Positions 1-40,785 of a stretch of DNA of 64,000 nt are shown one piece after another (within the stretch, counting starts at the first letter, position 1; every line of letters starts with the position of its first letter). Origin of the DNA: Candidatus Forterrea multitransposorum CG_2015-17_Forterrea_25_41 (GTDB lineage: Archaea > Iainarchaeota > Iainarchaeia > Iainarchaeales > CSSED10-239); assembly GCA_009392915.1 (NCBI GenBank), contig CP045477.1:416001-480000 (forward strand). The letters run 5' to 3'. Both the position numbers and the translations under genes were made by a program. The notes beneath the pieces were generated by a model. It made no database searches. It saw nothing but the letters and a program-made list of their open reading frames with translations, and was not told where the DNA came from.

Positions 1-140
1 GTTTTTTTACTAAATATATGTCTTAATAATCTACTCTTTCCAGAATTATTTCCACCTACAAAAATATTTAGTTTTGATAAACTATTAATAGTATCTGGAT
101 AACCTTCAAAATTTAATTTAATATTTTTAATTAATTCCAT
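1..140 (-). CDS. N-terminal fragment (approx 46 aa, truncated by window start) of an AAA_15/OLD-family-like ATPase. The ATG at 138-140 overlaps the hsdS stop codon.
   Basis: Reverse-strand translation MELIKNIKLNFEGYPDTINSLSKLNIFVGGNNSGKSRLL..., with a Walker A-like GGNNSGKS. The ATG overlaps the TAA of the upstream hsdS by 1 nt. Confidence 0.45.
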   Translation of the reverse strand, partial: MELIKNIKLNFEGYPDTINSLSKLNIFVGGNNSGKSRLLRHIFSKK

Positions 141-1432
141 TAATATTTCACCCTTATTTTTCCAGACATTAATTTAGGTAATAATAAATCTCTTATTTCA
201 GATAATTTCTTATTTTGCCTTTTATTTTCTGAAATTTTAATAAATGTACTTCTGATCATTGAATTATATTTTTTCAATATTTCATTTGATGGATTCAATA
301 TCTGTATTTTCTGAATGTTTTCATTATTAATTGCTTGCATTGTTGTACCATTACATAAGTTATTTTTTATTATTTCAAAATCATCATTTAATACAAAATT
401 CCAAATATAATACAAAGCATTTTCTTTTATGTCTAACCCAGCAAATCCAGTAGATAAAATTAAATTTTCTAATTCCCAAGCGCTATACTTATCAAAATAA
501 GTTATTTTTTTACTATTTTTCATTTTAGCAAACCACACTGTATTCTCTTTAGGTTGCATATTTGCTCTTGATGGTCTTTTTATAAATGTAATTTTAGTAT
601 TATAATTTATTATTTCAGAATTATCTATATCTGCAGTTGCAACATATGTTTTTTCATCAAAGTCTTCTGTACCAACCTTTGTAAAAGACGTTAGATTATT
701 GTCTCCTAAATGCCCAACATCCCATCCTTTAGGTATTTCTTTTTTTAATTCTTTATTATAAACCATTTCTCCTCCACTAGATTTATAAGGTTCTCCTTTT
801 TCATTTGGAAATTCAAAATCAACAAACCATCTTTTAAATAAAGTTTTTCCTATTTCTTCAAGTGTTTGATTCATTTTTCTGTTTAGTTCTATTTTTTCAT
901 CTAAATCAGAAAGGATTTTTGCAATTTTTAACATTTCATTATTATTTTTTGGAACTATAACTAGTAATTTTTTAATATCCCCTAAACTAAGTGTTTTTTG
1001 TGTAGAACCACCAACATTTTTTTCAATTTGATTTAAAATATATTTAGAATTTAAGGCATAATATAAAAAATAACTGTTTATATTCGGGTTAATTATCACC
1101 GTATTTTGCCCTAAACAAAATAATTCTGTTGTATTTACAAAACTTGTAATTCCATATGTTCCAACCCTAGTCATTATGATATCATTTTGCTTTGGGATAT
1201 AATTTTTAGTAAATTCATCATAAATAGATTTAGTAACTTTTAATGTATTTGATAAATCTAAACTACCTGATTTCACATCAGTTACTCTTACCATTGATAT
1301 TCCTTTATTAACATAAATTGGAGTTTTATGACAAGAATCAATAACTATAGATATATCATTTAATGATTTAACGTCCCAATCTTTAGGAATTAATCCAATT
1401 TCTGTTTTTTTAAATTTTATTTTATTAATCAT
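140..1432 (-). CDS. hsdS: Type I restriction-modification specificity subunit HsdS.
   Basis: 430 aa. Two target-recognition halves separated by a conserved central helix (KKLLVIVP...LDEKIELNRKMNQTLEEIGKTLFKRWFVDFEFP) and a C-terminal LLPKLMSGKIRV motif typical of HsdS. Sits in an operon with hsdM. Confidence 0.8.
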   Translation of the reverse strand: MINKIKFKKTEIGLIPKDWDVKSLNDISIVIDSCHKTPIYVNKGISMVRVTDVKSGSLDLSNTLKVTKSIYDEFTKNYIPKQNDIIMTRVGTYGITSFVNTTELFCLGQNTVIINPNINSYFLYYALNSKYILNQIEKNVGGSTQKTLSLGDIKKLLVIVPKNNNEMLKIAKILSDLDEKIELNRKMNQTLEEIGKTLFKRWFVDFEFPNEKGEPYKSSGGEMVYNKELKKEIPKGWDVGHLGDNNLTSFTKVGTEDFDEKTYVATADIDNSEIINYNTKITFIKRPSRANMQPKENTVWFAKMKNSKKITYFDKYSAWELENLILSTGFAGLDIKENALYYIWNFVLNDDFEIIKNNLCNGTTMQAINNENIQKIQILNPSNEILKKYNSMIRSTFIKISENKRQNKKLSEIRDLLLPKLMSGKIRVKY

Positions 1433-2400
1433 AATATTTCCAATTTATGTTCTGAATTAACAATTTCATAAAAATCATTAATATAAGTAATTATGTTTAA
1501 ATATATCGTATTATTTTTTACATCTGATACTTCTATGTGAGAAGTTATTTCAAAAATAGATCCTGTTCTTGTTTCTTCAGGAATATTAATATTCTCAGAA
1601 TACTCTAAAATTCTAAAATTTTTAATTTTAACTTTATCTTCTCCAATTTCAATTTGATTTAATTTAGACATATAATCATTAATATAACTTTTAAAATCAT
1701 ATGAATTGCTAAATTCCTCAATTGAATTAATAAAATTTTCTTCAGGATAAATATTATCTAATTTAATAAATAAACCATCACCTATCGGTTCTATAACTAT
1801 ATCTTTATTAAATAACTCTTTAAATTCTAATGCACAATTTTTATTAAATCCTAAATCCCTTGTAATTAAAAATACATTTTCATAATCATCAAAATCTTGA
1901 GATAATATTGTCTCCCATATCAAGGCATCTTTAAAACCAGAATCAGATTTTTTATCTTTATTAAAAGGAGACTTTTTTTCTAATGCTCTTATTTTTAGAT
2001 CATTAAATTTTTGAAAAATTAAATCATCAGAAATTTTTAAAATTTTTATTTTGTTTTCAAAAATATAATTTCCAATTTTATCCAAAATAAAATCTTTTAT
2101 ATTAAAATCATCTGAAATTTTAAATAAGTTAATTTTCGAATCAATATAAGCATATCTTTTTTTAATGTCACCTAATTTTCTGCTATCGGATTTAAAACAA
2201 TCTCTTCTTTGTTTTTCTAATTCAAATAAAGTTATATCTGTTATTGATAATTTAATATATTCAAACAAATTTTTTTTAAAAATATAATCATACAATTTTT
2301 TAAAATCATTATTAAATGTAAAAGTATGATAATAAATATTATCACTACTATTTTCTTTTAACACATTTGTATCAAAAATAATTATTGTTTTTGGCATCAT
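1429..2400 (-). CDS. PIN-like nuclease-domain protein (N-terminal approx 190 aa) with a C-terminal domain of unknown function.
   Basis: N-terminal IIIFDTNVL, plus downstream acidic residues including FLITRD (the hhTxD-type PIN motif). 4-nt overlap with both neighbouring genes. Confidence 0.45.
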   Translation of the reverse strand: MMPKTIIIFDTNVLKENSSDNIYYHTFTFNNDFKKLYDYIFKKNLFEYIKLSITDITLFELEKQRRDCFKSDSRKLGDIKKRYAYIDSKINLFKISDDFNIKDFILDKIGNYIFENKIKILKISDDLIFQKFNDLKIRALEKKSPFNKDKKSDSGFKDALIWETILSQDFDDYENVFLITRDLGFNKNCALEFKELFNKDIVIEPIGDGLFIKLDNIYPEENFINSIEEFSNSYDFKSYINDYMSKLNQIEIGEDKVKIKNFRILEYSENINIPEETRTGSIFEITSHIEVSDVKNNTIYLNIITYINDFYEIVNSEHKLEIL

Positions 2401-2879
2401 TTAAAATCAAATATTTTCTTTTTATTAGAATAATTAATTATTATTTTATATTTTAAATTGTTTTCTAAATTCATCTCTTTTTCAAAATTTTCTTTTGAAC
2501 TATAATTTAATTTAACTAATATTTTATCAGTGTGATTTGGTTGTAATAGAAATGGAAATATAACTGGTTTATATGATGGTAGAGGATAACTTGTTTTTAA
2601 ACCAACACCCAAACTTACAGATTCAGATACATTCAAATAAACTGAATTAGGCATAAATTTAGTTTTATTATGATATAATTCCATCTTCTTAATTGTAGTT
2701 GGTCTTTGACCAACATTACTTAAATAAAAATAAATCCAAATTTCATTTTCATCCATCTTAACTTCTAAAACTTCTTTTTCAACATATAATTTAGGTTTAT
2801 TTTTACTTTCTATATAAAAAGATAATAATATACCTAATATTGCAACTATTAAACCCAATATACTAATTATATATTCCAT
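2397..2879 (-). CDS. Small single-pass membrane protein with a beta-rich C-terminal domain, hypothetical.
   Basis: N-terminal hydrophobic helix ISILGLIVAILGILLSFYI. Overlapping start and stop with its neighbours. Confidence 0.4.
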   Translation of the reverse strand: MEYIISILGLIVAILGILLSFYIESKNKPKLYVEKEVLEVKMDENEIWIYFYLSNVGQRPTTIKKMELYHNKTKFMPNSVYLNVSESVSLGVGLKTSYPLPSYKPVIFPFLLQPNHTDKILVKLNYSSKENFEKEMNLENNLKYKIIINYSNKKKIFDFK

Positions 2880-3370
2880 TAGTTATCATTTTTCTTTTTA
2901 AACTTTCTAATTAATGCTAATAATAGTTCTTGTTTAAAAAATATTATACTTAGTAATTCTATACCAAAAGCAATATTTAAAACAACAGATAATTTAAAAT
3001 TATTAATTATTGTTTTGTAAATACTTATTTGACTATTTTCTATATTTTCAAATTTTTGATTTAAATTAGTTATTTGATACTGTATAATATTATAATCATT
3101 TTTTATTTCTTCAAAATCTTTTTTAGTTATATTTTCTGTTATTAATTTGTTATAGTCAGACTGACAATTTTTTAGTTGTGAACTAATCTGTATTATATTG
3201 TTATTTAATGTAATTTTATTTAATTCACAATTATTTAATTTATCTACAATAGGTTTACATTTATCCTCTGATAATAAACCAAACAATCCTTGTATAATTG
3301 GAATAAATATCATCACAATTATAAACACAACTAAAATACCTCCAATTATTGCAAATGGATTATCCGCCAT
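2879..3370 (-). CDS. Small membrane protein with two TM segments flanking a Cys-containing coiled-coil region, hypothetical.
   Basis: N-terminal TM helix (FAIIGGILVVFIIVMIFIPII), a Q/N/K-rich heptad-like middle region, and a C-terminal hydrophobic segment. Start lies 2 nt after the hsdM stop. Confidence 0.4.
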   Translation of the reverse strand: MADNPFAIIGGILVVFIIVMIFIPIIQGLFGLLSEDKCKPIVDKLNNCELNKITLNNNIIQISSQLKNCQSDYNKLITENITKKDFEEIKNDYNIIQYQITNLNQKFENIENSQISIYKTIINNFKLSVVLNIAFGIELLSIIFFKQELLLALIRKFKKKNDN

Positions 3371-3372
3371 AT

Positions 3373-4890
3373 CTATTTCACCTCAAAGCCGATTCCTTTA
3401 AGATTTTTCTTAATCTCTTCTTCTAATTTCTTAGATTCTTTAAATTGTTCGCTTAATTCTTTTGTAAGGCGAGTCATCTTTTCTTGAAAAACTTCAGGAT
3501 CTTCCTCTTCTTCCTTAAAACCAACGTAACGGCCAGGTGTAAGAATAAAGTCTTGCTTTTCAATCTCTTCAAGAGAGGCTGATTTACAAAAAGAAAGCTC
3601 ATCTTGATAACTTTTTTTGTTTATCGGGTCTTTTGACCTCCAAAGAGAAACAGTTTCTGAAATTTTTGTAAAATCTTCTTCAGTGAGTTCTCTTTGTCTT
3701 CTGTTAATCATTTGTCCAAGATTTCTAGCATCAATAAAAAGAGTTTCTCCTTTTCTATGTGCAGGTTTATTTCTATTAACAAACCAAAGACAAGCAGGAA
3801 TCATTGTATTATAAAATAATTGAGATGGAAGAGCAATAATACACTCTACAAGATCATCTTTAAGTATATTTTTTCTAATTTCTCCTTCTCCAGAAGTATT
3901 AGAACTTAAAGAACCGTTTGAAAGAACAAAACCAGCAATTCCTTTAGATCCTAAATGATAAATAAAATGTTGAACCCATGCAAAATTAGCGTTCCCTGCA
4001 GGAGGAACTCCATATTTCCAACGAGCATCCTCTCTTAATAGATCTCCAGACCAGTCTGAATCATTAAAAGGAGGATTTGCAATTATAAAATCAGCTCTTA
4101 AGTCTTTATGTTCATCATTTAGAAAACTACCTTCATTATTCCAAACAACTTTATTATCAATACCTCTTATTGCAAGATTCATTTTACATAATTTCCAAGT
4201 TGTTTGATTAGATTCTTGACCATAAATAGATATTTGACCTATTTTTCCACCATGTTTTTCAACAAACTCTTCAGATTGAACAAACATTCCTCCAGAACCA
4301 CAACAAGGGTCAAATATTCTTCCTTTAAAAGGTTGTATTATTTCAACTAATAATTTAACAATAGATTTAGGAGTATAGAATTGGCCTCCTTTTTTTCCTT
4401 CAGCAGAAGCAAATTGTCCTAAGAAATATTCATATACTCTTCCTAAGATATCTTTACTATTATCTTTAGAATTAAAAGAAATTGTTCCTATAAGATCAAT
4501 TAACGCTCCTAATTTTGTTTTATCTAAAGATGGTTTTGAATAATCTTTTGGAAGTATTCCTTTAAGTGTTGGATTTTCTTTTTCAATTAAATCCATTGAA
4601 TCATCAATAATTCTTCCAATTTCTATATTTTTTGCATTATCTTGAAGATATTCCCATCTTGCTTTTTTTGGAACATAAAATACTCTTTGAGAGACATATT
4701 CATCTTTATCTTCTGGGTCTGCATATTCTTCTTCTTTTAGTTTAGTATATAGTTCTTCAAAAGAATCAGATATATATTTTAAAAATATTAAACCTAAAAC
4801 TACATGTTTATATTCTGCAGCATCCATATTACTTCTTAATTTATCTGCTGCTTTCCAAAGCTTTTCTTCAAATCCTAAATCTTGAGTCAT
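3373..4890 (-). CDS. hsdM: Type I restriction-modification N6-adenine DNA methyltransferase subunit HsdM.
   Basis: 505 aa with an AdoMet motif ([10 protein letters not shown]) and the catalytic NPPF ([12 protein letters not shown]). N-terminal HsdM_N-like region present. Confidence 0.9.
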
Positions 4891-4960: not shown

Positions 4961-5347
4961 CTATTCAAATCTAATCTCTTTTCTATCATCTTCTATTGCT
5001 TGTTTTATTTTATTATATTCTTCTTCACTTAACTCTATTATATTACTATAAGTATAATCTTCCTTTGCAAGCTTAAATCTTTCTTGTAAAGAACGTGCAC
5101 CAAGACCTTTATTAGATAAAAGTAATAAAGAAAGTTTAATCTGATAAGGATATGGTTTTTTCCAAGAAGTAAATTCATTGTCTACTTTTTTAATAACTTT
5201 AAATATTCCAAAAATTACTCCTTGACCATAATATACAATAATATCATCTAAATTAACTAAATCTCTTTCATTTTTGTCTATAAAACCACAATATTCTTTT
5301 GTTTTAACAAAAGATTCCCAAGAATGGTTAATTAAGTAATATTTCAT
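4961..5347 (-). CDS. EVE-like (PUA-fold) domain protein.
   Basis: 128 aa. Pattern MKYYLINHSWESF ... DDIIVYYGQGVIFGIFKVIK ... PYQIKLSLL resembles the EVE consensus (YWLxK..P..F / GDLxFFYHS..IVGIAEV). Lies 70 bp upstream of hsdM on the same strand. Confidence 0.4.
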   Translation of the reverse strand: MKYYLINHSWESFVKTKEYCGFIDKNERDLVNLDDIIVYYGQGVIFGIFKVIKKVDNEFTSWKKPYPYQIKLSLLLLSNKGLGARSLQERFKLAKEDYTYSNIIELSEEEYNKIKQAIEDDRKEIRFE

Positions 5348-7164: not shown

Positions 7165-7890
7165 CTAAACTTTAATCTCTATTAAAACAGGATTATGGTC
7201 ACTAAATCTTCTAATTTCATCATTTTCAAGAACTTTGCAAGAAATAATGTTTTTAAAAATAGGTTTATTCATAAAAAAGTAATCATTTTGCCACTTAACT
7301 TTACTTTTTTTATGTCTTAAGGTCTGTACAGGATATTCTTTATCAGTTAAATCAAAAGCATCAAAAAAATTAAAATCTTTTAATCTATCAAAAAAAATCT
7401 TATGAGAGTTATTATATTTATATATTAAATCAAATTGAATACTTGCATTTAAATCTCCCCCCAATATAATATTTCTTTTACCATTAAGTTTACCATAAAA
7501 CAAAGGAGATAAATCAGATAACATGCTATGTAGATTAGGAATTGAATAACCATCTGTCATAAGACCATATAATGATATAAAAGTAAGTTTTTTATTATTT
7601 ATAACAGTATTTGCTATTGTTAAAGATCCATTAAATTTAGTATTTATTGTTTCCTGAGAAAGATTGTATTTTTTACTATAAATTCCAGATCCCCAATTAC
7701 GATTTTTATCAATTTTATTCCAAATAAGATTTGAATCTTTTTTAATATGTTCAGGAGGATTTGATTCTTGAAATAAATATATATCTGCATCAATATTATT
7801 TAAAAAATAATCCCAAATATCTTTATTTAGCTTTTTATTTTTCCAATAATCCATATTCCAAGTAACTATTTTAATATTCATTCTTATCAA
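7165..7890 (-). CDS. Endonuclease/exonuclease/phosphatase (EEP) family protein.
   Basis: N-terminal KIVTWNMDYW (TWN motif) and C-terminal RFSDHNPV (SDH motif), both characteristic of the EEP fold. Confidence 0.7.
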   Translation of the reverse strand: MIRMNIKIVTWNMDYWKNKKLNKDIWDYFLNNIDADIYLFQESNPPEHIKKDSNLIWNKIDKNRNWGSGIYSKKYNLSQETINTKFNGSLTIANTVINNKKLTFISLYGLMTDGYSIPNLHSMLSDLSPLFYGKLNGKRNIILGGDLNASIQFDLIYKYNNSHKIFFDRLKDFNFFDAFDLTDKEYPVQTLRHKKSKVKWQNDYFFMNKPIFKNIISCKVLENDEIRRFSDHNPVLIEIKV

Positions 7891-8805: not shown

Positions 8806-9147
8806 TTAAACATTTACCCAAATAACACAACCTTTCTTATGAACGTAAGGTTTTGGAGAAGAATATCTTTTGATATCAGACAATACCCAAGCATGAGGAT
8901 TATTATATTTTAAATCTAAAACATCTTCTTTCTTTATTTGATGCTTTTCTAAGTTTTTAAATAAAATATCTTTGTTAATTTTTATTGAATCTTTAATAGT
9001 ACATTCACCATATACTTTTTTGCTGCCACTCATAATAAGAGCAATTCTTTCACCAATCTTTGAAGTATTAAAGTTTCTTATCTCCCAAGTCTTTTTTCCT
9101 TCTAAGATTAAATTTAACCATTTTTCTTTAATTATAAGGCCTTTCAT
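8806..9147 (-). CDS. ASCH domain (PUA-like) protein.
   Basis: 113 aa. KEKWLNLILEGKKTWEIR ... GERIALIMSG ... GECTIKD matches the ASCH pattern (K..w...i.sG.KtvE.R...gd.i.l......vvg.a.i). Confidence 0.6.
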   Translation of the reverse strand: MKGLIIKEKWLNLILEGKKTWEIRNFNTSKIGERIALIMSGSKKVYGECTIKDSIKINKDILFKNLEKHQIKKEDVLDLKYNNPHAWVLSDIKRYSSPKPYVHKKGCVIWVNV

Positions 9148-9244: not shown

Positions 9245-10603
9245 TTATTTATCAATAACTTTCCAATATCCTGCTTTGTCTGAACCTATTCTTTTTATCT
9301 TCTTTTGCTCTTTTAATATTTTTAAATATCTTTCAATAGTCTTTGTACTTAAATTAAATTCTGTTGCCATTTGAGCATAAGTAACTTTATTATTAGCTTT
9401 AATTAATTTTAATATTTTTACACCGACATTTACACCGACATTTACACCGACATTTACACCGACATTTACAGTGTCTTTTACAGGTGCATTTACACCGACA
9501 TTCATAGTAGATTCTATTATTTTTTGTCTTTTAAAAACAATACAAAACCAATCAGTATCTATATTAAACTTAACACTTGGAAAAAGTTTTTTTATTCTTT
9601 TAATACCAGAACCAATCTTTTCAATAAACTCTGTTCTTTGTAAACAACCTGCTAAAATAGGATTTCTTAATATACTTACTTTTCCAAAATCTTTTGGACT
9701 AAAAAGAAGTTTTCCTGGATTTAATATTTCAACTCTATCTTCATACACTTCTACCAATATTCTTCCTTGAACAAAATAATCTCTATGAATCATGGCATTT
9801 AGTACTGCTTCCCTTAAAGCAGCCTCTGGTATTTCAGGGGTTTCAACTCTTCTTAAATTAATAATATCAGCCCGTGTTTTTGTATTTCTTAGGATAAATA
9901 ACACAGCATTTTCAAAATTTGATAAAAAGTCAGATTCAAATACTTTTTTATCAAGCATAACAGCCTTAGTATCTCCTTGGTATAAAACACAACTAATATC
10001 TGCATTTAAAAAGAATTTAGTAATTCTTTTTGAAAATAATAATGCACAGGCATTATTTGGAATATCATTTGTTAAAAGATTTAAATTTTTTAAAATATGC
10101 TCTTTTGATAGAGTTGTTGAAAATTTTGCTTTTTTTCTATATTTAAGAAATTTAGTATTATCTATATCTTTAAAATTAAATGAAGAAGTTTGTTTTTCAA
10201 AAGAAATTTTATTTTCGTTTTGTAAAAAATCAATAATTTCATTTCTATCTAGCTTTTGAGAGTTAGCACCTTGCCTTACATAAAAAGAACCACCTACTAA
10301 ATATGGTTTATCTTTTCCTAAAGGAACATATATTATACCAATATTATCTATGATTTCAAAATTAACAACTAAAGAGGGATCTATGTTTCTTGCAATTGTT
10401 TGTACTTCAGAGGAAAATCTATTGTTTATAGAAATACCTTTTATTTCTCCTTTATCTGTAACTCCTAAAAGAATTTTACCTCCATCTGAGTTTGCAAAAG
10501 CACAAATTGATTTTCCAATTTCTTTATGGTTTAAACTTTCTTTAAACTCAAGAGTATATCCTTCTCCTGTTTTTATAAGATTAAGTAAGTTCTTTTTATC
10601 CAT
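9245..10603 (-). CDS. AlbA_2 (Schlafen-like, formerly divergent AAA) + HATPase_c_4 + C-terminal wHTH putative transcriptional regulator.
   Basis: N-terminal LLNLIKTGEGYTLEFKESL...ICAFANSDGGKILLGV, a mid EAVLNAMIHRDY motif, and a C-terminal wHTH (TIERYLKILKEQKKIKRIG). Confidence 0.7.
   Translation of the reverse strand: MDKKNLLNLIKTGEGYTLEFKESLNHKEIGKSICAFANSDGGKILLGVTDKGEIKGISINNRFSSEVQTIARNIDPSLVVNFEIIDNIGIIYVPLGKDKPYLVGGSFYVRQGANSQKLDRNEIIDFLQNENKISFEKQTSSFNFKDIDNTKFLKYRKKAKFSTTLSKEHILKNLNLLTNDIPNNACALLFSKRITKFFLNADISCVLYQGDTKAVMLDKKVFESDFLSNFENAVLFILRNTKTRADIINLRRVETPEIPEAALREAVLNAMIHRDYFVQGRILVEVYEDRVEILNPGKLLFSPKDFGKVSILRNPILAGCLQRTEFIEKIGSGIKRIKKLFPSVKFNIDTDWFCIVFKRQKIIESTMNVGVNAPVKDTVNVGVNVGVNVGVNVGVKILKLIKANNKVTYAQMATEFNLSTKTIERYLKILKEQKKIKRIGSDKAGYWKVIDK
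9421..9504. repeat. 12-bp tandem repeat (CACCGACATTTA): four perfect plus three degenerate copies, in frame inside the regulator CDS (encodes the (VNVG)n linker).
   Basis: Read directly in the sequence: caccgacattta x4, followed by cagtgtctttta, caggtgcattta and caccgacattca. Confidence 0.85.
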
Positions 10604-40504: not shown

Positions 40505-40785
40505 TATTAAGTGTACAGGCACTTACTGGTCGAAAAACAGTTCAAGAAAACATTTAGCTTTATAAAATCTCAAGTCCGCAACCCAAAAAGCATCAAACAC
40601 TTAGGATACTGCTGCTTCCTTCCGGATCTGACAGGGTTTACTAAGATATTCGATCTTAATGGACGAACCGTCAGCAATTTTACAAAGAGTGCCTCCTTGC
40701 TTATTTGCCTTCCAGTAATAATCACTCCGGCTATGTAGATTTCCGGTAACAGGAGACTACAACCCCCCCAGCTAGCCTATACAAG
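40505..40785 (-). ncRNA. Signal recognition particle RNA (SRP/7S RNA).
   Basis: Reverse strand contains GUCAGAUCCGGAAGGAAGCAGC, the conserved helix-8 motif (cf. GGUCCGGAAGGAAGCAGCC). It is a GC-rich ~280-nt island in AT-rich DNA, with an oligo-T run at the 3' end. Ends are approximate. Confidence 0.6.

Follow-up and report, generated by a model that had tools for sequence, protein, structure and literature searches.

A predicted OLD-family nuclease gene between hsdS and hsdR of an archaeal type I restriction-modification operon

What is the role of an ATPase gene that lies between the specificity and restriction subunit genes of a type I restriction-modification (R-M) enzyme? The question is raised by the edge of a 64,000-bp stretch of the genome of Candidatus Forterrea multitransposorum CG_2015-17_Forterrea_25_41 (contig CP045477.1, positions 416,001 to 480,000; this whole stretch is referred to below as the window), where a gene for an OLD/AAA_15-like ATPase, hereafter the OLD gene, starts at the end of hsdS on the minus strand and runs off the left end. 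The first-pass annotation, made from the window alone, had assigned this truncated gene to the ATPases of the OLD, GajA and AriA type and to the same polycistron as hsdS. Analysis of the complete gene, its operon and its relatives indicates that it is most probably an autonomous single-gene antiviral nuclease of the OLD family, carried as swappable cargo in the type I R-M operon.

To recover the missing part of the gene, contigs were found by exact-sequence look-up of the HsdS protein, which is carried by many public contigs. One of them, L001 (JGI 3300007985, a 663,621-bp contig), agrees with the reverse complement of the window without mismatches over 11,432 shared nucleotides and contains the complete OLD open reading frame (ORF; L001:11293-13176), encoding 627 amino acids. 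The operon is 100% identical in a second assembly from ENA (L002), and an identical OLD protein is present in NCBI (NCP72088.1 and others) on 37 contigs, the longest being 839,632 bp. The following features belong to the start of the OLD gene:

Window 1-140, minus strand: 5' end of the OLD gene, 46 codons, seen by translation and by the AAA_15 match of the fragment; the remaining 581 codons are at L001:11433-13176.
Window 33-56, minus strand: codons of the Walker A motif; N31, N32, K35 and S36 do not vary among 99 homologues.
Window 138-142, minus strand: TAATG stop/start overlap of hsdS and the OLD gene, read from the sequence.
Window 148-153, minus strand: GGGTGA hexamer, Shine-Dalgarno-like, read from the sequence.

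The minus-strand sequence at the junction is AAGGGTGAAATATTAATGGAATTA. The ATG of the OLD gene (window 140-138) shares one base with the TAA of hsdS (window 142-140), forming TAATG, and the overlap of the two genes proposed earlier is therefore real. Window 3-140 translates to 46 codons, MELIKNIKLNFEGYPDTINSLSKLNIFVGGNNSGKSRLLRHIFSKK, which bears out the annotated N-terminal fragment with a Walker A motif at the window edge, and the ORF continues past window position 1. The string LNIFVGGNNSGKS quoted in that annotation corresponds to residues 24-36 of the OLD protein, and the Walker A motif itself, GGNNSGKS (GxxxxGKS), extends from G29 to S36 and includes K35. The 46-residue fragment matches Pfam AAA_15 over residues 4-42 (E = 4.1e-6, 27.1 bits); this match is short and below the gathering score of 32.1, but well above chance for a single protein. 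On the extended contig the ATG is the earliest start codon following an in-frame stop, and homologues of the OLD protein share the same start point (consensus MIxxI...). The GGGTGA hexamer lies 7 nucleotides 5' of the ATG, within the end of hsdS, and may function as a Shine-Dalgarno sequence.

The extended contig places the OLD gene as the sixth of eight genes located on the same strand:

Window 3373-4890, minus strand (L001:6543-8060): hsdM, methyltransferase subunit, 505 amino acids, first gene of the operon; Pfam N6_Mtase (E = 3.9e-111) and HsdM_N (E = 1.1e-27).
Window 2879-3370, minus strand (L001:8063-8554): 163-amino-acid protein with one N-terminal transmembrane helix; faint DUF1664 and JetC/MukB-like matches.
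Window 2397-2879, minus strand (L001:8554-9036): 160-amino-acid protein with one N-terminal transmembrane helix; no Pfam or PADLOC match.
Window 1429-2400, minus strand (L001:9033-10004): PIN_12 protein, 323 amino acids; Pfam PIN_12 (E = 3.3e-11); 4-nucleotide overlap with hsdS.
Window 140-1432, minus strand (L001:10001-11293): hsdS, specificity subunit, 430 amino acids; Pfam Methylase_S (E = 3.7e-17).
L001:11293-13176, same strand as the operon: OLD gene, 627 amino acids, full ORF.
L001:13173-16229, same strand: hsdR, 1018 amino acids; HSDR_N (E = 4.2e-49), SWI2_SNF2, T1R_D3-like and T1RH-like_C.
L001:16213-16866, same strand: 217-amino-acid protein with one N-terminal transmembrane helix.

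In this order the junctions measure +2, -1, -4, -4, -1, -4 and -17 nucleotides. Since the eight genes are located on one strand with overlapping or nearly touching junctions, they probably form a polycistron, and the earlier proposal that the OLD gene shares a transcript with hsdS agrees with this arrangement. The OLD gene is embedded between genes of one and the same type I R-M system, its stop codon overlapping the start of hsdR by 4 nucleotides, which suggests that it is cotranscribed and translationally coupled with both hsdS and hsdR. A 70-nucleotide AT-rich, TATA-like spacer is found 5' of hsdM, and the G+C content of the window is 24.5%. Together with the archaeal signal recognition particle RNA listed below, this indicates an AT-rich archaeal host, probably of the DPANN-like kind with small genomes.

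Search of the full-length protein with hidden Markov models, as had been advised for the fragment, found both expected ATPase families in Pfam, AAA_15 at residues 5-354 (E = 4.5e-17) and AAA_21 at residues 120-356 (E = 5.3e-16), together with a weak match to OLD-like_TOPRIM at residues 399-463 (E = 0.0064). The N-terminus carries the elements of an ABC-type ATPase, namely Walker A, a signature-like motif, Walker B and the H-loop. Residue conservation was scored over 99 homologues with 34-57% identity. Invariant in all of them are the ATPase residues K35 and S36 of Walker A, E318 of Walker B and H350 of the H-loop (TTHSNH), as well as the nuclease residues E408 and D412 (WVEGxxD), D477, E527 and E529 (REIEN) and K583, while D479 is kept in at least 90%. 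The acidic motifs of a Toprim domain (E, DxD) and the ligands of a second metal are thus represented by E408-x3-D412, D477-x-D479 and E527-x-E529. In the OLD protein of Thermus scotoductus, Ts OLD, the corresponding sites are E377/D431/D433 for metal A and D381/S478/E480 for metal B (PMC7049728), and in Bp OLD they are E400/D455/D457 and E404/T506/E508, with the lysine K562 in a helical domain (PMC6755086). The acidic pattern of the protein studied here follows both in order and with similar spacing, and the distance from E527 to K583 is 56 residues, equal to that from T506 to K562 of Bp OLD. The nuclease/Toprim partner domain, whose lack would have refuted the initial assignment, is supported by a complete OLD acidic pattern with the lysine, and the Pfam OLD-like_TOPRIM model matches 21 of 50 members of the family, with a best E-value of 7.8e-5.

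With hhalign, homology to the archetype P2 Old was detected: the family profile aligned to it over residues 257-416, a span that takes in the VEG strand of Toprim (probability 95.9%, E = 5.4e-9). The best sequence match in the PDB is Ts OLD (E = 6.5e-12, residues 287-390), and the match of the family profile to E. coli YbjD is weak (E = 3.4e-4). In NCBIfam weak partial matches were obtained to the retron Eco8 effector (7.2e-11) and MADS3 (3.3e-5), both far under the cut-offs. The full-length structural model has a pLDDT of 84.9, and its best Foldseek matches are the retron-Eco8 OLD effector (E = 1.7e-11), Ts OLD (8.5e-9) and GajA (5e-8), not a housekeeping ABC ATPase. The C-terminal region modelled alone (pLDDT 78.6, pTM 0.79) has as its top two Foldseek matches the C-terminal region of Xcc OLD (probability 0.96-0.97), followed by GajA, and helices are placed by the model at residues 565-624. 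Of the original OLD/GajA/AriA assignment, the OLD type stands, while close membership of GajA or AriA by sequence does not, the PADLOC matches being partial (about 1e-17).

Several results weigh against this reading of the C-terminal half. The Toprim domain is weak by sequence, its Pfam match scoring 17.4 bits against a gathering score of 23.2 bits. The C-terminal 234-242 residues alone gave no PADLOC match at E <= 1, a profile of 23 C-terminal regions gave none among all PDB sequences at E <= 10, and the C-terminal sub-alignment did not match P2 Old in hhalign (probability 0.3%). The structural match to Xcc OLD, though top-ranked, has an E-value of only 0.02 and a TM-score of 0.41-0.50. With the C-terminal sequence searches empty, the Toprim call is based on the motifs, the recurrent weak Pfam matches and structure prediction. 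Taken together, the ATPase half, the pattern of motifs and the fold of the whole protein place it in the OLD family with good support. For a Toprim fold of the C-terminal region taken by itself the support is modest, and the protein is remote from every solved or curated OLD model.

Whether the gene belongs to the R-M enzyme or is a guest in its operon can be approached through its relatives. The family has at least 3,544 matches at E <= 1e-3, labelled in the sources as 'predicted ATP-dependent endonuclease of OLD family' or 'AAA family ATPase'. One genome per species was scanned with two family-specific peptide patterns, which found at least 361 relatives, and genomic context was counted in the best 80 loci. 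Type I R-M genes are located within 10 kb of the OLD gene at 2 of these 80 loci. One, in Pontibacter oryzae (L003; NZ_QWGE01000002.1, 6584-14687), is the sole other relative with the order hsdM...OLD-hsdR; at the other, in Planococcus citreus (L008), the R-M genes adjoin the OLD gene and are divergently oriented. A conserved neighbour was sought over the 80 loci and none was found, no protein cluster being common to more than 6 of them. An ORF directly downstream on the same strand is present at 21 of 76 loci, with sizes of 100-753 amino acids, and a UvrD-like helicase occurs within 10 kb at 2 of 80 loci and is adjacent in none. The nearest relatives, with 40-57% identity, stand alone, either in defence islands or in unrelated surroundings: the closest (P0002, 56% identity) adjoins an SLFN-type helicase and GmrSD, and three others (P0010, P0012 and P0016) are found in unrelated contexts. 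The family is normally stand-alone, and its tie to R-M is positional rather than conserved.

In the Pontibacter locus hsdM is split into ORFs of 339 and 205 amino acids, a 574-amino-acid ORF without family match takes the place of hsdS, and the longest hsdR ORF does not contain the HSDR_N nuclease domain, so that this R-M system looks decayed or frameshifted.

The reverse comparison started from HsdR and covered 32 metagenomic loci encoding its relatives. In none of those that include the hsdS-hsdR junction is the OLD gene found between hsdS and hsdR. The content of the slot, with the identity of HsdR, is as follows:

L095, HsdR 93% identity: 187-amino-acid ORF (L095:765-1328).
L096, HsdR 76% identity: 422-amino-acid ORF (L096:5050-6318); a PIN_12 homologue is kept 5' of hsdS.
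L107, HsdR 54% identity: GajB-like UvrD helicase (L107:8061-10004).
L109, HsdR 52% identity: DUF4238 protein and an NTase/HEPN pair.
L104, HsdR 51% identity: 218-amino-acid ORF (L104:4091-4747).
L106, HsdR 49% identity: PDDEXK_3 protein.
L098, L099, L101, L102, L105 and L108, HsdR 49-55% identity: slot empty, with hsdM, hsdS and hsdR contiguous.

Because relatives of HsdR hold other cargo or none, and because the OLD family is solo, the OLD gene is interchangeable cargo and not a subunit of the R-M enzyme. That the hsdS-hsdR junction serves this HsdR lineage as a variable slot for cargo is the chief addition made by this analysis. The junction is also a practical place to seek new defence genes, since different relatives hold different defence-like genes there and several of the cargo ORFs have no Pfam or PADLOC match.

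The helicase in the slot of L107 matches PADLOC GajB (E = 1.3e-47) and Pfam UvrD-helicase (E = 2.3e-40), and no GajA/OLD gene was detected at that locus; this orphan helicase mirrors the orphan OLD gene of the window. The slot ORFs of L095, L096 and L104 have no Pfam or PADLOC match and no pairwise BLAST similarity, and each bears an Rx4H motif (RNKYVH, RHNYVH and RNEQYH, respectively) reminiscent of HEPN RNases; judging from these motifs, they may be uncharacterised HEPN-like defence cargo. The HsdS of L095 (L095:40-768) is 45% identical overall to that of the window (140-1432), the central and C-terminal conserved regions being common to both, and the difference could be read as a swap of target-recognition domains within the lineage.

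In the preferred reading, a 627-amino-acid protein with an N-terminal ABC-type ATPase head bearing helical inserts, and with C-terminal Toprim and helical domains that would form a two-metal nuclease site, is encoded by a gene presumably inserted into the variable hsdS-hsdR junction of a complete type I R-M operon of an AT-rich archaeon. Through its coupling to hsdS and hsdR, a second, nuclease-based layer of defence would be made whenever the R-M enzyme is made. If the protein works like the OLD proteins that have been characterised, its ATPase dimer would sense or gate, and its Toprim site would nick or degrade the DNA of an invader or, in an abortive response, perhaps nucleic acid of the host; nuclease activity, ATPase activity, a role in defence and any trigger are all proposed on the strength of such analogies. 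P2 Old and Ts OLD are precedents for a two-metal Toprim nuclease regulated by an ATPase (PMC7049728). Vc OLD, a solo Class 1 OLD protein, provides defence and is a nickase that stops phages from replicating (PMC12392090). Protection against phage is also known for ABC-ATPase/TOPRIM fusions located inside defence operons, and both active sites are needed for it (HEC-04; 10.1101/2024.01.29.577857).

Other published observations count against this model. E. coli YbjD, a Class 1 OLD protein, is reported to give phenotypes without its Toprim domain (PMC13261556), and for this reason nuclease-based action is not guaranteed. HEC-01, an embedded candidate with an ATPase and Toprim, gave no protection in a published screen (10.1101/2024.01.29.577857). 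In addition, no experimentally studied member of this OLD subfamily was found in the literature, and the closest solved relatives match partially.

Comparison with known systems shows features of two classes of OLD proteins. As in Class 1, it has the Walker A sequence GxNN[SA]GKS of P2 Old, the same six metal ligands, acidic or polar, in the order found in Ts OLD (PMC7049728), and a single gene without an adjacent UvrD-like helicase or retron reverse transcriptase, its neighbours here being hsdS and hsdR. Its sequence similarity to Class 1 is confined to Walker B, the H-loop and the first Toprim strand (residues 257-416 for P2 Old and 287-390 for Ts OLD). The protein also has a predicted helical C-terminal extension of about 100 residues with the invariant K583, which is not present in Ts OLD (PMC7049728). 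Moreover, Class 1 genes have been described as lying away from other genes for defence (PMC10568477), and the copy studied here is located inside a defence operon. Its likeness to Class 2 and GajA consists in the predicted C-terminal Toprim and helical domains, with K583 spaced as K562 of Bp OLD (PMC6755086), and in the weak top Foldseek matches of the C-terminal model, first to the corresponding region of Xcc OLD and next to GajA; the PADLOC models of GajA match residues 313-485 at about 1e-17, a partial match. The difference from Gabija is that no UvrD/GajB-like gene is adjacent here or in the relatives, and that the overlapping downstream gene is hsdR, a superfamily 2 translocase. The protein unites the solo context of Class 1 with a C-terminal region resembling that of Class 2, in its predicted helical domain and its invariant lysine.

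Among systems defined by their genomic setting, HEC-04 is alike by description, being an ABC-ATPase/TOPRIM gene found by 'guilt-by-embedding' whose defence requires the Walker A and Toprim metal-binding residues (Payne et al., 10.1101/2024.01.29.577857). HEC-04 comes from bacterial Hma systems, while the copy described here is in an archaeal type I R-M operon, and HEC-04 is not among the 25 best PADLOC matches of the OLD protein; HEC-01A matches partially (E = 1.2e-14). PrrC/RloC, RloAB and AbiL are likewise ABC-type ATPase defence genes inside type I R-M operons. RloAB of Campylobacter is cited as an ATPase and Toprim pair (PMC10802264), and the PADLOC AbiLi model, for AbiL of Lactococcus, matches the OLD protein at about 7e-14. 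Both RloAB and AbiL are split in two genes, and the OLD family is mostly not associated with R-M. PrrC and RloC differ in having an anticodon-nuclease C-terminal domain where the OLD protein has Toprim-type motifs; PrrC is not among the 25 best PADLOC matches either, and the C-terminal region alone has no match in that database. PARIS normally consists of two genes with a toxin-antitoxin-like hexamer architecture, and the OLD protein has no full-length match to it: the AriA match covers residues 24-356 and the AriAB match residues 191-421, ending short of most of the Toprim region. A systematic description exists of defence genes, ABC-ATPase/Toprim fusions among them, that are embedded in operons of the Hma, BREX, DISARM and type I R-M systems (10.1101/2024.01.29.577857), and TgvAB is embedded in a type I R-M system of V. 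cholerae (PMC11411939). Because such embedding is already described, the locus does not represent a new system. It would be a clean archaeal case of layered immunity, with a predicted solo OLD-type nuclease translationally coupled into a type I restriction operon. The subfamily is widespread (at least 361 species-level genomes) and pairs a Class-1-like context with a Class-2-like C-terminal region; characterisation of a single member would shed light on the triggering of solo OLD proteins.

The position of the gene also invites an explanation in which the OLD protein is a guard, a back-up layer activated specifically once a virus has knocked out the type I enzyme, and sensing a DNA-mimic or anti-restriction protein, as in the pairs PARIS-Ocr and PrrC-Stp. 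The prrC gene of the EcoprrI locus presumably holds the same position, between hsdS and hsdR, and the junctions of the OLD gene with these two genes suggest tight translational coupling. Furthermore, PrrC is reported to be almost exclusively embedded in type I R-M (Payne et al., 10.1101/2024.01.29.577857), and Ocr or Stp are listed as triggers of PARIS, Gabija and PrrC (10.1101/2024.01.29.577857; PMC10802264). The PADLOC models of AriA and AriAB match the ATPase part (5.5e-18 and 2.5e-16), but the AriA matches are partial and no better than for many other ABC defence ATPases. Sensing of R-M inhibitors cannot be the general mode of the family, because 78 of the 80 OLD relatives are without type I R-M within 10 kb, and the nearest relatives of HsdR are without an OLD gene. 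Moreover, we know of no anti-restriction protein from a virus of such archaea. A guard function is consequently considered unlikely.

A still less probable alternative, for which the chances appear slim, is a partnership with HsdR, in which the OLD protein would use the HsdR translocase as GajA uses GajB, or would add a second nuclease to the R-M holoenzyme. It is hinted at by the Class-2-like C-terminal region, closest to Class 2 Xcc OLD and with an equivalently spaced K583, by the 4-nucleotide overlap of the OLD stop with the hsdR start, considering that Class 2 OLD genes often overlap a helicase gene (PMC6755086), and by the orphan GajB-like helicase in the hsdS-hsdR slot of L107. On the other hand, neither a helicase nor HsdR is conserved beside the family, the UvrD-like genes mentioned above never being adjacent; relatives of HsdR function without an OLD gene and often without any cargo; and HsdR retains its own HSDR_N nuclease domain (E = 4.2e-49). 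The solo distribution of the family speaks against both variants, and it is doubtful that the OLD protein is functionally wired into the archaeal type I R-M system as its second layer, whether as a guard or with HsdR borrowed as its motor.

That the gene encodes a housekeeping or transporter-type ABC ATPase, or is a decayed passenger without current function, is hardly credible: NCBI names the protein simply 'AAA family ATPase [archaeon]' and the Pontibacter locus of the same gene order looks decayed (hsdM split, hsdR truncated), but the ORF is intact and 100% conserved across two independent assemblies, and the housekeeping ATPase was rejected on the retention of all catalytic residues of both domains, on top structural matches to defence OLD proteins and not to transporters, on neighbours that are R-M genes and a PIN-domain gene, and on the lack of any permease or transporter partner gene.

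The preferred reading, an autonomous OLD-family nuclease carried as cargo, leaves the other small genes of the operon to be described. The three small proteins (160, 163 and 217 amino acids) each have one predicted N-terminal transmembrane helix and gave no family match. In L107 a 158-amino-acid protein of similar architecture, located between hsdM and hsdS, weakly resembles the 160-amino-acid protein (BLASTP E = 0.03). The PIN_12 protein has no PADLOC match; its homologue in L096 (43% identity; L096:2794-3756) occupies the same position in an operon without an OLD gene, and PIN_12 seems to be a steadier embedded component than OLD. PIN_12 was also considered as the partner of the ATPase, in the manner of an HEC-03-like ATPase and PIN pair, and was rejected: none of the 80 OLD loci has PIN_12, and L096 has PIN_12 without OLD.

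Upstream of hsdM the window contains further small genes, and the whole stretch of 1-10.6 kb looks like a defence island:

Window 4961-5347, minus strand: 128-amino-acid protein, 70 nucleotides before hsdM; no match.
Window 7165-7890, minus strand: protein of about 240 amino acids; weak Exo_endo_phos match.
Window 8806-9147, minus strand: 113-amino-acid protein; weak ASCH domain match.

A 452-amino-acid protein without Pfam match is encoded just 5' of the island at L001:830-2188 and also in the window (about 9245-10603, minus strand), and the same place in the otherwise near-identical assembly L002 (L002:854-2188) encodes a 444-amino-acid SLFN_AlbA_2/HATPase_c_4/HTH protein. The difference is suggestive of a second variable slot with defence-like content, close to the gene for valyl-tRNA synthetase.

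Elsewhere in the window a structural RNA identifies it as archaeal:

Window 40512-40783, minus strand: archaeal signal recognition particle RNA; Rfam RF01857, 118 bits.

Four tRNA genes (Tyr, Leu, Ser and Asp) are located on the same, minus, strand as this RNA.

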